From assembly GCA_965228895.1 (NCBI GenBank), contig OZ245842.1, positions 64,001-128,000 on the forward strand: a stretch of DNA of 64,000 nucleotides, written 5' to 3'. The stretch's first letter is position 1. Each line of letters begins with the position of its first letter. Shown here piece after piece: positions 3,953 to 38,952 of the stretch. The translations under genes were made by a program, and so were the position numbers. Below the pieces are notes generated by a model. The model saw only the letters and a list, made by a program, of their open reading frames with translations, made no database searches and was not told the DNA's origin. The DNA is from Alphaproteobacteria bacterium. Its GTDB lineage: Bacteria; Pseudomonadota; Alphaproteobacteria; SP197.

Positions 3953-3981
3953 TCGACTTGCCCCTTTGGGGCTGGTAAAAC
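3953..3981 (+). promoter_or_regulatory. Putative sigma70 promoter for the ileS leader
   Basis: TCGACT (3953-3958) - 17 bp - TAAAAC (3976-3981) - 7 bp - ATG at 3989. Confidence 0.5.
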
Positions 3982-3988
3982 CCGCGCC

Positions 3989-4069
3989 ATGCCGGCCAAA
4001 CGTTTCATAACGGGGCGCGCGCCTTTGGCCATAGAGCCCGCGCGAATTATCGGCCCGGTCCTGATCTAA
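3989..4069 (+). CDS. Putative Ile-rich leader peptide of ileS (MPAKRFITGRAPLAIEPARIIGPVLI)
   Basis: 26 aa with 5 Ile codons (ATA, ATA, ATT, ATC, ATC); the stop codon overlaps the loop of a 9-bp hairpin (4054-4062/4069-4077). Confidence 0.6.
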   Translation: MPAKRFITGRAPLAIEPARIIGPVLI

Positions 4070-4127
4070 GGGCCGGGACGCCTTCCGTCATCCCGTTTGA
4101 TAAGTTTTCCGACAAAGGTTGCGTGTC

Positions 4128-6977
4128 ATGACTGCCGACTACAAGTCGACGCTGTTTCTGCCAAAAACTGAGTTTCCCATGAAGGCCGGCCTGCCGAAGC
4201 GCGAGCCGGAACTCCTGGAGCGCTGGCAGACCATGGACCTCTACCGCGTGCTGCGCGAGGACTCCAAAGGTCGTGAGAAGTTCATCCTGCATGACGGCCC
4301 GCCCTACGCGAACGGCCATCTGCATATCGGCCACGCGCTCAACAAGATCCTCAAAGACGTCATCAACCGGTCCCAGCAGATGCTGGGCAAGGACGCCAAC
4401 TACGTGCCCGGCTGGGATTGCCACGGTCTGCCGATCGAATGGAAGATCGAGGAACAGTACCGCGCCGCGGGCAAGGACAAGGACGAGGTGCCGATCGTCG
4501 AGTTCCGCCGCGAATGCCGGGACTTCGCCGAGCACTGGATCGGCGTGCAGTCCGACGAGTTTCAGCGGCTCGGCGTCATCGGCGACTGGAAGCGGCCCTA
4601 TACGACCATGAGCTTTGACGCCGAGGCGCAGATCGTGCGCGAGCTCGGCAAGTTCATCATGGATGGCTCGCTCTATCGCGGCTCGAAGCCCGTCATGTGG
4701 TCGTGCGTCGAAAAGACCGCGCTTGCCGAAGCCGAGATCGAATACGACGACCACAAGTCGACGACCATCGATCTGGCGTTCCCTGTCATCAAAGCGTCGG
4801 TACCCGTGCTTGACGGCGCGGCCATCGTCATCTGGACGACAACGCCCTGGACGATCCCCGGCAACCGCGCGATCGCCTATGGCAAGGCCATGGACTACCG
4901 CGTGGTCGAGGTCGCCGAGGTGACGGAGAAATCCGGCGCCAAGCCGGGCGACCGTCTGGTCTTTGTCGCCGAGCTGATGGAAGGCGCGCTCAAGCGTTGC
5001 GGCGTCACGGCCCATCAAGAGGTCGCTCAACTGAAAGGCGCCGACCTGGCCGGCACGGTGACGTCGCACCCATTGCGCGGGCAAGGCTACGATTTCGATG
5101 TGCCACTGTTGGCCGGTGATCACGTGACCACCAAACAAGGCACCGGCTTTGTGCATATCGCGCCGGGCCATGGCGCGGAGGACTGGGTGCTGGGCATCGA
5201 GAACAATATCGAGGTGCCGTTCACGGTCGGTGAAGACGGCGCTTACTACGACACCGTTCCGCTGTTCGCCGGTAAGCGAGTTCTGACCGCCGACGGCAAG
5301 GAAGGCGACGCCAATGGCGCCGTGGTCAAGGCGCTCGCCGAGTCAGGCCACCTGCTCGGTGTCGGCAGGCTGGTGCACAGCTATCCCCATTCCTGGCGGT
5401 CGAAGGCACCGCTCATCTTCCGCAACACGCCGCAATGGTTCGTGTCGATGGAGACGAACGGTCTGCGTGACACCGCGCTGGCGGCGATCGACGCGACGCG
5501 CTGGGTCCCGGCTTCGGGTCAGGACCGCATCCGCGGCATGATCGAGGATCGGCCCGACTGGGTCTTGAGCCGACAGCGCGCCTGGGGTGTGCCGATCACC
5601 GTCTTTGTCCATAAGGAGAGCGGTGAGGTCCTGCGCGACCAGCAGGTCGTCGACCGCATCGCCGAGGCCGTGGCCGAAGAGGGCGCCGATGCCTGGTTCG
5701 CGGGCGATCCCCAGCGGTTCCTGGGCAACGATCACAAGGCCGAGGACTATGAGAAGGTCGATGACATCCTCGACGTCTGGTTCGACTCCGGATCGACCCA
5801 CGCCTTCGTGCTGGAGCAGCGCGAGGACTTAGCGTGGCCGGCTTCGCTTTATCTGGAGGGGTCCGACCAGCATCGCGGCTGGTTCCATTCCTCGCTTCTG
5901 GAAAGCTGCGGTACGCGTGGGCGTGCGCCCTATGACGCCGTCCTGACGCACGGTTTCGTCATGGACGGCGACGGGCGCAAGATGTCGAAGTCGCTCGGCA
6001 ACGTGGTCGCGCCGCAAAAGGTCATCGAACAGTACGGTGCGGACATTCTGCGCATCTGGGTGGTCAGCGCCGACTATTCCGAGGACTTGCGGATCAGCGG
6101 CGAAATTCTGAAGTACCAGGCCGACAGCTACCGCCGGCTCAGGAACACCCTGCGTTTTCTGCTTGGCAATCTCGCCGGTTTCGATCCCAGCGAACGGTTG
6201 GATCCCGCCGAGATGCCGGAACTCGAACGCTGGGTCCTGCATCGCGTGGTCGAGCTTGACTCCGTTGTGCGCGAGGCCTGCGACAATTTCGATTTCCACG
6301 AACTCTTCATTGCCGTCCATAATTTCTGCGCGACCGATCTCTCCGCGTTCTATTTCGATATCCGCAAGGACGCGCTTTATTGCGACCGCGCGGACTCGAA
6401 ACGCCGGCGCGCGGCGCGCACGGTGCTTGACGTGCTGTTCGATTGCCTGACGGCCTGGCTTGCACCGGTCCTTTGCTTTACCGCCGAGGAGGCGTGGTTG
6501 ACCCGTTTCCCTGGCGAGGGCGAAAGTGTGCACCGGCGGACCTTCCCTGACGTGCAGGATGTCTGGCGCGACGATGCCCTGGCAAAAAAGTGGCGGCGCG
6601 TACGCCGGCTGCGCCGGGTCGTGACAGGTGCATTGGAAGTTGAGAGACGCGAGAAGCGGATCGGCGCTAGTCTTCAGGCCCATCCCAAGGTTTATGCGAC
6701 GGCCGAGGATATCGCCGCGTTGGATGGCCTTGATCTCGCCGAAATTGCCATCACATCATCGGCTACCTTGATCGAGGGAACGCCGCCGGACGATGCCTTC
6801 CGCCTGGAAGACGTCGCCGACATTGGCGTGGTGCCCGGTTTTGCGGATGGTCAGAAATGCGAGCGATGCTGGATGGTGCTGGATGATGTTGGCCGCGACC
6901 CCATCTACCCGGAACTGTGTGCACGCTGCGCCGACGTGGTGGCGTCGTTGACCCATGTGGTCGAAGTGAGCGGCTAA
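4128..6977 (+). CDS. ileS: Isoleucine--tRNA ligase
   Basis: HDGPPYANGHLHIGH, GWDCHGLP, KMSKS, C-terminal CERC...CARC zinc finger. Confidence 0.98.
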   Translation: MTADYKSTLFLPKTEFPMKAGLPKREPELLERWQTMDLYRVLREDSKGREKFILHDGPPYANGHLHIGHALNKILKDVINRSQQMLGKDANYVPGWDCHGLPIEWKIEEQYRAAGKDKDEVPIVEFRRECRDFAEHWIGVQSDEFQRLGVIGDWKRPYTTMSFDAEAQIVRELGKFIMDGSLYRGSKPVMWSCVEKTALAEAEIEYDDHKSTTIDLAFPVIKASVPVLDGAAIVIWTTTPWTIPGNRAIAYGKAMDYRVVEVAEVTEKSGAKPGDRLVFVAELMEGALKRCGVTAHQEVAQLKGADLAGTVTSHPLRGQGYDFDVPLLAGDHVTTKQGTGFVHIAPGHGAEDWVLGIENNIEVPFTVGEDGAYYDTVPLFAGKRVLTADGKEGDANGAVVKALAESGHLLGVGRLVHSYPHSWRSKAPLIFRNTPQWFVSMETNGLRDTALAAIDATRWVPASGQDRIRGMIEDRPDWVLSRQRAWGVPITVFVHKESGEVLRDQQVVDRIAEAVAEEGADAWFAGDPQRFLGNDHKAEDYEKVDDILDVWFDSGSTHAFVLEQREDLAWPASLYLEGSDQHRGWFHSSLLESCGTRGRAPYDAVLTHGFVMDGDGRKMSKSLGNVVAPQKVIEQYGADILRIWVVSADYSEDLRISGEILKYQADSYRRLRNTLRFLLGNLAGFDPSERLDPAEMPELERWVLHRVVELDSVVREACDNFDFHELFIAVHNFCATDLSAFYFDIRKDALYCDRADSKRRRAARTVLDVLFDCLTAWLAPVLCFTAEEAWLTRFPGEGESVHRRTFPDVQDVWRDDALAKKWRRVRRLRRVVTGALEVERREKRIGASLQAHPKVYATAEDIAALDGLDLAEIAITSSATLIEGTPPDDAFRLEDVADIGVVPGFADGQKCERCWMVLDDVGRDPIYPELCARCADVVASLTHVVEVSG

Positions 6978-6982
6978 CGTCC

Positions 6983-7465
6983 ATGATGCGTTTGGCCCTT
7001 GTGATTGCCGGCGTGGTCCTGGTCTTGGATCAAGTCTCCAAGGTCTGGTTGCTCGGGGTCATGGAAGCCAACGCTTACCGCCCGATCGAAGTGACCGGCT
7101 TCTTCAACCTCGTGATGGTCTGGAACGAAGGCGTCAGTTTCGGCATGCTGAAGGTGGGTTCAGACATGATGCGCTGGATCTTGATGGGCTTCGCCCTTGC
7201 TGTCGCTGTGGCCTTGCTGATTTGGGCACGCCGGTCTGCCGGAATGGTGCTGACGGTCGGGATCGGATTGATCGCCGGCGGTGCCGTCGGGAACGCGCTG
7301 GACAGGCTGTTTTATGGCGCCGTCGCCGACTTTTTCGATGTCCATGTAAGCGGCTTTCATTGGCCAGCCTTCAATATTGCCGATTCTGGGATTACAATCG
7401 GCGTTGTGCTGCTGCTCTACGATACGCTGCTGAATCGTCGTCCTGACCCCAAAGTGTCTGCATGA
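6983..7465 (+). CDS. lspA: Lipoprotein signal peptidase II
   Basis: DQxSK, NxGVSF, GAVGNALDR, VADFF and AFNIAD motifs. Confidence 0.96.
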   Translation: MMRLALVIAGVVLVLDQVSKVWLLGVMEANAYRPIEVTGFFNLVMVWNEGVSFGMLKVGSDMMRWILMGFALAVAVALLIWARRSAGMVLTVGIGLIAGGAVGNALDRLFYGAVADFFDVHVSGFHWPAFNIADSGITIGVVLLLYDTLLNRRPDPKVSA

Positions 7466-38608: not shown

Positions 38609-38670
38609 GGTCAGGGTCTCTCTTCAGCTCTTACGGGGCGCGTCGTGGCGCCGGGATCGGGGTCAGCGGT

Positions 38671-38802
38671 TCACAATGAGCCGGCTGGCGCGGCGGCGCG
38701 TGCCGGCAAGCCCGTAAGTCGCAGGTCGAAGATAAAGACATGATAACGCCCGCGCGCCGGAGCGGCGGACAAATGACGATAACAAGGCTCGAAACGGGAC
38801 AT
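38671..38802 (-). CDS. Possible second leuA uORF (43 aa, ...FIFDLRLTGL...)
   Basis: ATG to TGA in frame; contains CTG-CGA-CTT-A, matching the core of the first leader. Confidence 0.3.
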   Translation of the reverse strand: MSRFEPCYRHLSAAPARGRYHVFIFDLRLTGLPARAAAPAGSL

Positions 38803-38870
38803 CGGTTACACCGGAAACTGCTTGGAAAAAGGGTACGACGGGACGGCTGGCCCGGCGCTTCAGGCGCCGG

Positions 38871-38915
38871 TCAGATAAGTCGTAGACCGAGTAGCAGGGC
38901 GTGCAACCTTTCCAT
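38871..38915 (-). CDS. Leu-rich leader peptide of leuA (MERLHALLLGLRLI)
   Basis: 6 Leu in 14 codons (TTG, CTG, CTA, CTC, CTA, CTT); immediately followed by hairpin CCGGCGC-5 nt-GCGCCGG (38852-38870). Confidence 0.75.
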   Translation of the reverse strand: MERLHALLLGLRLI

Positions 38916-38922
38916 GGTTGCG

Positions 38923-38952
38923 GAAATAGGTGGGAATCGGTGGGGAGTCAAG
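38923..38952 (-). promoter_or_regulatory. Sigma70 promoter for the leuA leader
   Basis: (C)TTGACT (38951-38946) - 17 bp - TATTTC (38928-38923) - 7 bp - ATG at 38915. Confidence 0.6.

Follow-up and report, generated by a model that had tools for sequence, protein, structure and literature searches.

Introduction

Ribosome-mediated attenuation is known from classical leaders of Escherichia coli, such as trpL, leuL, ilvL and pheM, the last of which, in pheM-pheST, is an example of a synthetase gene controlled in this way. The present study concerns two short open reading frames (sORFs), one upstream of ileS and the other upstream of leuA, in a stretch of 64,000 nucleotides (hereafter the window) from the genome of an alphaproteobacterium of the SP197 lineage (contig OZ245842.1, positions 64,001 to 128,000). 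As in the classical attenuators, each sORF lies upstream of a gene on the same strand and contains codons for the amino acid of that gene, and whether a hairpin forms would depend on a stalled ribosome. Unlike the classical attenuators, these leaders have a single hairpin with no 1:2, 2:3 or 3:4 alternatives, and a U-tract follows the hairpin in only 16 of the 95 distinct leaders collected here. The sensor is one fixed codon after the rare Arg codon CGA, not a codon run, and the mRNA is predicted to be leaderless. Based on sequence comparisons, we consider it probable that the ileS and leuA elements represent one family of leaderless leader-peptide attenuators of Alphaproteobacteria, each with a single sensitised hungry codon.

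Attenuators upstream of alphaproteobacterial leuA genes were reportedly predicted by Vitreschak et al. in 2004. In mycobacteria, polycysteine sORFs are leaderless, carry consecutive Cys codons and affect translation, in that a sequestered ribosome-binding site is released (10.1101/834739). The trpL sORF of Sinorhizobium meliloti, an alphaproteobacterium, is leaderless as well (PMC10117765). The elements examined here resemble both in that the sensory sORF would start at the 5' end of the transcript, and they share with the polycysteine sORFs the feature that several loci would respond to one sensed amino acid (a 'ribulon'). They differ from the polycysteine sORFs in having the gene start 35-280 nt past the hairpin and one codon behind CGA as the sensor. 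A leaderless sORF upstream of ileS is also present in another alphaproteobacterium, Caulobacter crescentus (CCNA_03934). It served as a negative control in PMC4117421, and the relevant sections of that paper give neither a mechanism nor a motif for it.

Two further systems have to be compared. T-boxes, which precede ileS genes in actinobacteria (PMC1262725), are similar in that one exchangeable codon sets the specificity for synthetase and biosynthesis genes and is followed by a purine. In contrast to T-boxes, the elements described here lack Stem I, the T-box sequence and an antiterminator, and their codon lies in a conserved reading frame. Rfam 15, which includes RF00230, gave no match at the gathering score in the window and none at E up to 10 in either leader. 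The actinobacterial LEU element is a pseudoknot in whose base stem a run of Leu codons pairs with leuA's Shine-Dalgarno box (PMC1262725). Like the leuA leader of the window, it lies upstream of a long-form leuA and has a candidate Leu-rich leader peptide. Unlike the LEU element, the Leu codons of the window leader are located about 270 nt upstream of the leuA start and are followed by a simple hairpin; the minimum free energy fold contains no pairing between them and the start region, and no pseudoknot search was made. Leader-peptide attenuation, leaderless sensory sORFs and an ileS leader coding sequence (CDS) in Caulobacter are, hence, already known. A full-text literature search and Rfam 15 yielded no description of the shared CGA-codon-A core, of a link between ileS, leuA, PF26954-type proteins and threonine dehydratase, or of tandem modules.

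Leaders of ileS and leuA in the window

Both leaders are present where the initial annotation had placed them, and the arrangement that it reported for each (-35 box, 17 bp, -10 box, 7 bp, ATG) can be read directly in the sequence (Table 1). The -35 box of the ileS leader begins 6 bases past the stop codon of ribF, and a 17-nt spacer separates it from the -10 box. The start codon of leuA is located 244 nt past the first hairpin of its leader. The scarcity of CGA and the lack of a classical terminator were also borne out. Namely, CGA accounts for 5.1% of Arg codons in 858 long open reading frames (ORFs) of this genome, in which the shares of ATT among Ile codons and of CTT among Leu codons are 14.7% and 10.3%, and a consensus scan detected no intrinsic terminator in the ileS or leuA leader region of the window.

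Table 1. Positions of the leader elements and their genes in the window.
Feature	Position	Strand	Basis and remarks
ileS leader: -35-like hexamer TCGACT	3953-3958	+	Sequence; TTGAC-like box 36 nt 5' of ATG; CTCGAC at the equal place in family relatives
ileS leader: -10-like hexamer TAAAAC, 7 nt 5' of ATG	3976-3981	+	Relatives have GCTAnAC or GATAGA at equal distance
ileS leader sORF: ATG 3989, 26 codons and TAA (4067-4069), peptide MPAKRFITGRAPLAIEPARIIGPVLI	3989-4069	+	C-terminal R-I-[IT]-x-P conserved in relatives
ileS leader: putative sensor core CGA-ATT-ATC (rare Arg codon, Ile codon, conserved A)	4043-4051	+	Sequence and family comparison
ileS leader: GC hairpin, core CCCGGTCCT / AGGGCCGGG, sORF stop in loop	4051-4080	+	Folding, -19.7 kcal/mol
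C/U-rich spacer from hairpin to ileS, no canonical U-tract	4081-4127	+	Sequence and terminator scan
ileS (isoleucyl-tRNA synthetase), ATG 4128	4128-6977	+	ORF; orthologs in 39/41 genomes
leuA leader: -35 hexamer TTGACT, then 17-nt spacer	38951-38946	-	TTGAC-to-ATG distance of 36 nt, kept in relatives
leuA leader: -10-like hexamer TATTTC, 7 nt 5' of ATG	38928-38923	-	Sequence
leuA leader sORF: ATG 38915, 14 codons and TGA, peptide MERLHALLLGLRLI, 6 Leu codons	38915-38871	-	..L-x-L-R-L.. conserved in relatives
leuA leader: putative sensor core CGA-CTT-ATC, directly followed by TGA (38882-38871 with stop)	38882-38874	-	Sequence and family comparison
leuA leader: GC hairpin CCGGCGC-ctgaa-GCGCCGG, immediately 3' of stop, then C-rich tract	38870-38852	-	Sequence and folding
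leuA leader: second CGA-CTT-A module (CGA 38721-38719), GCCGGC..GCCGGC hairpin ~38707-38680, in-frame TGA 38673-38671	38721-38671	-	Sequence
leuA (long, type-2 2-isopropylmalate synthase, 566 aa), ATG 38608	38608-36908	-	ORF; orthologs found

Occurrence of the leaders and association with genes

The design common to the two leaders was traced in the upstream DNA of 30 ileS and 25 type-2 leuA orthologs from relatives. The leuA leader with its A-L-G-L-R-L segment and the 36-nt distance from TTGAC to ATG is kept across most of the family. Both leaders, each with the core, were found in members of distant families: G025 (CGAATTATCGGCCCGG for ileS and CGACTTATCGGCCCGG for leuA) and G034 (beginning with CGAATTACC for ileS and CGACTTACC for leuA). 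In an unbiased sample at the level of the class, CGA-CTT preceded all four type-2 leuA genes.

When 401 genomes of the class were scanned with the pattern, 35 ATT and 9 CTT hits were obtained, and 37 new ones (7 CTT and 30 ATT) were fetched. All seven CTT hits precede leuA. The ATT hits precede ileS in 18 cases and a protein of about 100 amino acids related to PF26954 in six cases recognized by tblastn and, to judge by eye, probably in two more; one lies upstream of a pyridoxal phosphate (PLP) enzyme and three were not assigned. A scan with one genome per species gave at least 120 stretches, 80 of which were examined as DNA and contained 83 matches. Of these, 43 are located before ileS, 4 before the small protein and 2 before leuA. 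None of these genes lies downstream of the remaining 34, many of which occur in other phyla, inside long ORFs. Records with true leaders include Rhizobium, Mesorhizobium, Bosea, Methylobacterium, Microvirga, Methylocystis, Azospirillum, Gemmobacter, Asaia and Glycocaulis.

The pooled set consists of 95 distinct leaders: 67 with ATT before ileS, 12 with ATT before the PF26954-type gene and 16 with CTT before leuA (one of these, L028, is doubtful). No crossed combination was found. The claims of the initial annotation that the two leaders share one design and that the cognate codon varies with the regulated gene agree with these data, and the same core recurs before orthologous genes in distant families. 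One loss was observed. In a sister genus (g4) the core is absent from both leaders; the ileS leaders read CGG-CTG-ACG-GGC-CCG, and most of them have no 3' arm of the hairpin. The ileS leader frame of this genus (L039-L046; for example, MSIKRGRGLRLTGPVLARM at the beginning of that in L039) continues without the 3' arm, and in L039 it ends in an ATGA that overlaps the ileS start. This suggests translational coupling instead of attenuation in this particular case. The idea that the motif-less genus had gained a tRNA-Arg(UCG) found no support, as the tRNA-Arg anticodons of its member G016 (ACG, CCG, CCT and TCT) are the same as in the genome studied here.

The small protein of about 100 amino acids matched none of the families in a Pfam or NCBIfam profile search. 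In precomputed annotation its relatives are labelled PF26954, and they are called acetolactate synthase small subunit in some sources. A third leader of this genome, outside the window, belongs to this group. It is located at about 2922571-2922975 of contig C1 on the minus strand, begins with MSVLKAIRRITGRAP, contains CGA-ATT-ACC (near 2,922,949) and a hairpin, and precedes a PF26954-type protein of 99 amino acids. The sORF reads through the hairpin in 5 of the 12 PF26954 leaders, including this one, in which it terminates shortly after the gene's start codon.

Two leaders, in genome G378 (L099) and in Azospirillum oryzae (L173), encode MNTTDTMRMRITGPAL with CGA-ATT-ACC and lie about 186 nt upstream of a PLP enzyme of 330 amino acids. 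The best match of this enzyme is threonine ammonia-lyase (NF005600, 336 bits, below the cut-off), and it has no C-terminal regulatory domain. Judged by this similarity, the gene would be a fourth target, in the Ile pathway, of the ATT version. In another genome (L101, G269:C10), a small ACT-like gene is located behind an ATT leader, and an ORF about 1 kb downstream is 37% identical to LeuA residues 249-339. It may represent a paralog of citramalate or isopropylmalate synthase.

A 130-nt repeat resembling a miniature inverted-repeat transposable element occurs twice in the window, at 25522-25651 (minus strand) and at 36796-36907 (plus strand), and has 125 blastn matches in this genome. The second copy adjoins the stop codon of leuA. 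In two sister species (L032 and L033 in G001 and G002), a copy of the repeat interrupts the sORF of the ileS leader and separates its N-terminal part from the CGA-ATT core. The insert contains an ATG that restores a frame into the core: MSSRSDFIKTGSALEPARIIGPVLI.

Searches for leaders of other amino acids gave negative results. The pattern CGANNNAYNGNCCCGG, applied to 5 genomes, returned just further ATT leaders; 15 regions were fetched, two of which were leaders and the rest coding. With CGANNTAYCGNCCCGG in the 401 genomes, 4 of 4 TTT, 3 of 3 GTT, 2 of 2 ACT and 11 of 12 AAT hits were fetched and no convincing leader was recognized; 16 of these look-alikes are located inside ORFs of at least 190 codons. 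No such leader was seen upstream of valS and leuS of this genome. Within these patterns and genomes, the design appears to serve Ile and Leu only. The notion that it is re-specified for different amino acids is, accordingly, retained for these two and not for the others searched. A scan of this genome with a strict hairpin definition returned 81 places, among which only those before ileS and leuA were convincing. A general grammar (CGA-NNN-A, hairpin, in-frame stop) matched 390 places of 1257 pre-candidates in the non-coding fraction of this genome and is, therefore, too unspecific to be used as a search.

Putative sensor core

The initial annotation had described the core as CGA, the cognate codon and ATC. 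Its first two codons and the A that follows are conserved; the full ATC is not. In the ortholog-anchored sets, A follows CGACTT in 17 of 17 cases and CGAATT in 10 of 15, and the third codon is ATC, ACC, ACA, ATG, ATA, AGC, ACG or GCC. In the encoded peptides, Arg and Pro are invariant. The residue between the third codon and Pro varies (G, D, V or A), with the surrounding nucleotides being fixed.

CGA is the Arg codon in every leader found by pattern. The choice of this codon was examined using a pattern with any CGN or AGN codon, which gave 150 listed matches and 396 more that were not listed. Among the matches listed, 23 had ATT or CTT behind an Arg (or AGC) codon other than CGA. Twenty of these were fetched: none precedes ileS, leuA or the small PF26954 protein, and 17 lie inside ORFs of more than 200 codons.

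Both ATT and CTT are readable by G34 tRNAs via G:U wobble. The genome studied here encodes tRNA-Ile with the anticodon GAT and tRNA-Leu with GAG, and its tRNA-Arg anticodons are ACG, CCG, CCT and TCT. No tRNA-Arg(UCG) was found in the tRNA listing of this genome; CGA must, therefore, be read by I:A wobble. Bacterial tRNA-Arg(ICG) decodes CGU, CGC and CGA (PMC3711424).

Further cognate codons are enriched in the N-terminal parts of the leader peptides and in many cases are rare ones. Leu constitutes 23% of residues in those of the leuA leaders, none of which is without an extra Leu. Ile makes up 9.9% in the ileS leaders, and 27 of these 69 Ile codons are ATA.

Promoter and predicted leaderless start

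In 54 of the 95 leaders, a TTGAC-like box is followed at 35-37 nt by an in-frame ATG, with a distance of exactly 36 nt in 33 of them. Out-of-frame ATG or GTG codons occur at that distance in only 0 and 4 leaders. Rhizobiales leaders that fail this distance test keep GCTAnAAGC 6-7 nt before the ATG. The peptides have 11-53 residues. Their N-terminal parts differ in length and sequence, and the frame always reaches CGA-NTT. The stop codon follows 7-10 codons past CGA in 77 of 95 leaders and lies within the hairpin loop in 60. This promoter geometry, as far as sequence can tell, should put the transcription start at the ATG of the sORF in most lineages.

Published data from two other alphaproteobacteria agree with a leaderless start. 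The ileS leader CDS of Caulobacter crescentus, CCNA_03934, is 45 nt long (14 codons), lies 78 nt before ileS, was mapped with ribosome profiling and is classed among leaderless mRNAs with a 5'-triphosphate (PMC4117421 and its supplement file 2). For PileS of Methylorubrum, differential RNA sequencing placed the start at an A, after TAGAAG and 7 nt, 150 nt upstream of ileS (PMC9320726, Table 2). The correspondence in these two organisms is one of position. A variant leader before ileS in one genome (L280, G028) encodes MVLGLKGFSRIRRPAPVARA with CGA-ATT-CGC and has no A after the sensor codon. Its -10-like box is located about 30 nt before the ATG, and it may be a leadered form of the ileS element.

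Hairpin, spacer and tandem modules

The hairpins of the 95 leaders have a mean folding energy of -24.6 kcal/mol. They fold more stably than dinucleotide shuffles, with a mean z of -2.2 and 87 of 95 values below -1. Counted from the first base of the sensor codon, the hairpin start lies 4-8 nt downstream in 81 leaders. The stem covaries, as indicated by 41 different 5-mers that follow the constant CCCGG in the 5' arm. At least four T within 8 nt past the hairpin are found mostly in Rhizobiaceae-type leaders, which carry GGGTTTTCGG after the hairpin. Since such a tract is limited to 16 of the 95 leaders, most hairpins are not canonical terminators. An alternative helix between the 3' arm and the next 60 nt, which might have acted as a 2:3 terminator or sequestered a rut site, was considered and rejected (mean z +0.5; 1 of 95 below -1.64).

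The spacer past the hairpin is rich in C (36% C versus 24% G; C exceeds G in 74 of 85 leaders). Nine of the 16 leuA leaders contain, 124-201 nt past the first, another CGA-CTT-A module that has a hairpin and an in-frame stop of its own.

Proposed mechanism

We infer the following sequence of events, in which the conjectural parts are that the ribosome stalls, what CGA contributes and how transcription is brought to an end. Transcription would start at the A of the sORF ATG, and the ribosome would load at the 5' end of the mRNA. Behind a variable N-terminal part, near the end of the peptide, it would encounter the rare CGA and then one cognate sensor codon, AUU before ileS, the PF26954 small protein and the threonine dehydratase-like gene, and CUU before type-2 leuA. 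Both codons of the pair would be read by wobble, CGA by tRNA-Arg(ICG) through I:A and AUU or CUU by G34 tRNAs through G:U. If charged tRNA-Ile or tRNA-Leu were scarce, the ribosome would wait with CGA in its P site and the sensor codon in its A site. Its leading edge would then cover the 5' arm of the hairpin, which could not form because it starts just 4-8 nt after the sensor codon. With a good supply, the ribosome would continue to the stop codon, which mostly lies in the hairpin loop, and dissociate. The hairpin would form and, together with the C-rich spacer, end or stall transcription before the gene. Termination is likely intrinsic where a U-tract follows; elsewhere it would probably involve pausing and Rho-dependent termination on the C-rich spacer.

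In yeast, CGA is read by I:A wobble, and CGA codons and CGA-NNN pairs slow or stall ribosomes (PMC4408800, PMC6301793). That an I:A pair in the P site could weaken decoding in the A site is an idea transferred by analogy from this work to the leaders considered here. The yeast effect is a quality-control problem, in contrast to the regulatory sensitiser that CGA is proposed to be in these leaders. On this basis, we tentatively put forward a one-codon gauge as one possible form of the mechanism. CGA in the P site would make decoding sensitive at one wobble-read codon in the A site, AUU or CUU, one ribosome-edge upstream of the hairpin, and a change of this codon would re-target the element. The small Ile regulon would include ileS, the PF26954 protein and threonine dehydratase, and leuA would be under the control of the Leu version, often with tandem modules.

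Several observations weigh against a ribosome-mediated mechanism of this kind. In the unbiased class-level sample, CGA-ATT was found before ileS in only 4 of 15 families, or 4 of 9 with a G+C content above 55%. The comparison with genus g4 gives no support to the suggested role of CGA. The conservation of CGA and the following A could be due to an RNA-level constraint as well as to decoding kinetics, because the residue before Pro varies while the neighbouring nucleotides stay fixed. In 24 of 66 ileS leaders the sensor is not preceded by any other Ile codon, which sets these leaders apart from classical attenuators. The rarity of U-tracts has to be added, as well as the results of the shuffle test on the 95 leaders, in which no antiterminator pairing and no second conserved helix were found. 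A ribosome at a stop codon in the loop might also be expected to block the hairpin. A scan for consensus sigma-70 promoters detected none that was canonical in the ileS or leuA leader region, so both promoters in the window are imperfect. Finally, a search of sequencing runs for this organism returned RNA runs, as contigs, with just 0.04-0.05 of the words, and the better-matching runs were not RNA.

Alternative explanations

An alternative that we regard as unlikely is that CGA-MUU-A and the hairpin form an RNA (or DNA) element read by a trans-acting factor, with the ORF being incidental. The factor could be a tRNA that pairs through its anticodon with the exposed codon, as at the specifier of a T-box, an RNA-binding protein or a nuclease. 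It would account for conservation at the nucleotide level, including the fixed synonymous CGA and the A kept after the codon in 27 of 32 cases, and for the free variation (G, D, V or A) of the residue after the third codon. The ileS leaders devoid of other upstream Ile codons and the position of the second leuA modules far from the 5' end would also be easily understood. However, an incidental ORF would not be expected to have its ATG in frame at the leaderless distance (54 of 95 leaders, compared to 0 and 4 out of frame), to keep its frame across N-terminal parts of variable length or to end 7-10 codons on in 77 of 95 cases. The extra rare cognate codons and the ribosome footprints on the Caulobacter ileS leader CDS argue in the same direction. 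So do the absence of Rfam matches, T-box included, at E up to 10 and of a second conserved helix of the antiterminator type.

Arrest peptides such as SecM and ApdP contain R-A-G/P-P motifs. By analogy, the C-terminal R-x-[I/T]-x-P-[A/V] of the leaders might be a nascent arrest peptide or a functional small peptide, the cognate residue being part of the peptide signal. The invariance of Arg and Pro speaks for this possibility, and so does the ileS leader of genus g4, which keeps L-R-L-T-G-P-V-L though CGA-ATT became CGG-CTG. Still, we judge it quite improbable. An arrest peptide is expected to have an invariant, codon-independent motif, and here each position between Arg and Pro is variable (I/L; I/T/M/S; G/D/V/A), whereas the synonymous CGA, for which the peptide offers no reason, is fixed. 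The constancy of Pro is explained by RNA structure, as its codon CCG belongs to the hairpin stem. A peptide signal also leaves unexplained why the variable residue matches the amino acid of the regulated pathway. On present sequence evidence, both a trans-acting factor and a peptide signal appear to fit the leaderless in-frame ATG, the placed stop and the fixed synonymous codon less well than does attenuation by a translating ribosome.

That the likeness of the two window leaders is a coincidence of unrelated small ORFs or non-coding spacers is hardly credible: the motifs are short and the general grammar matches 390 non-coding places of this genome, but the specific core precedes orthologous genes in distant families (both ileS and leuA in G025), and the codon-gene association is perfect in 95 distinct leaders.

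Biological implications

If the proposed attenuation by a translating ribosome is true, these leaders would represent a widespread gauge of tRNA charging, in which a single codon is tuned by the preceding one without a codon run or competing folds. This would be a natural regulatory use in bacteria of a slow codon pair that has so far been known as a problem for translation in yeast. With a length of about 100 nt the design is compact, and it is seemingly re-specifiable by one codon, which makes it of interest for synthetic amino-acid sensors. It would also explain the tuning of the essential ileS in Alphaproteobacteria, where T-boxes are lacking, and would define an Ile 'ribulon' that links ileS, the uncharacterised PF26954 family and threonine dehydratase.

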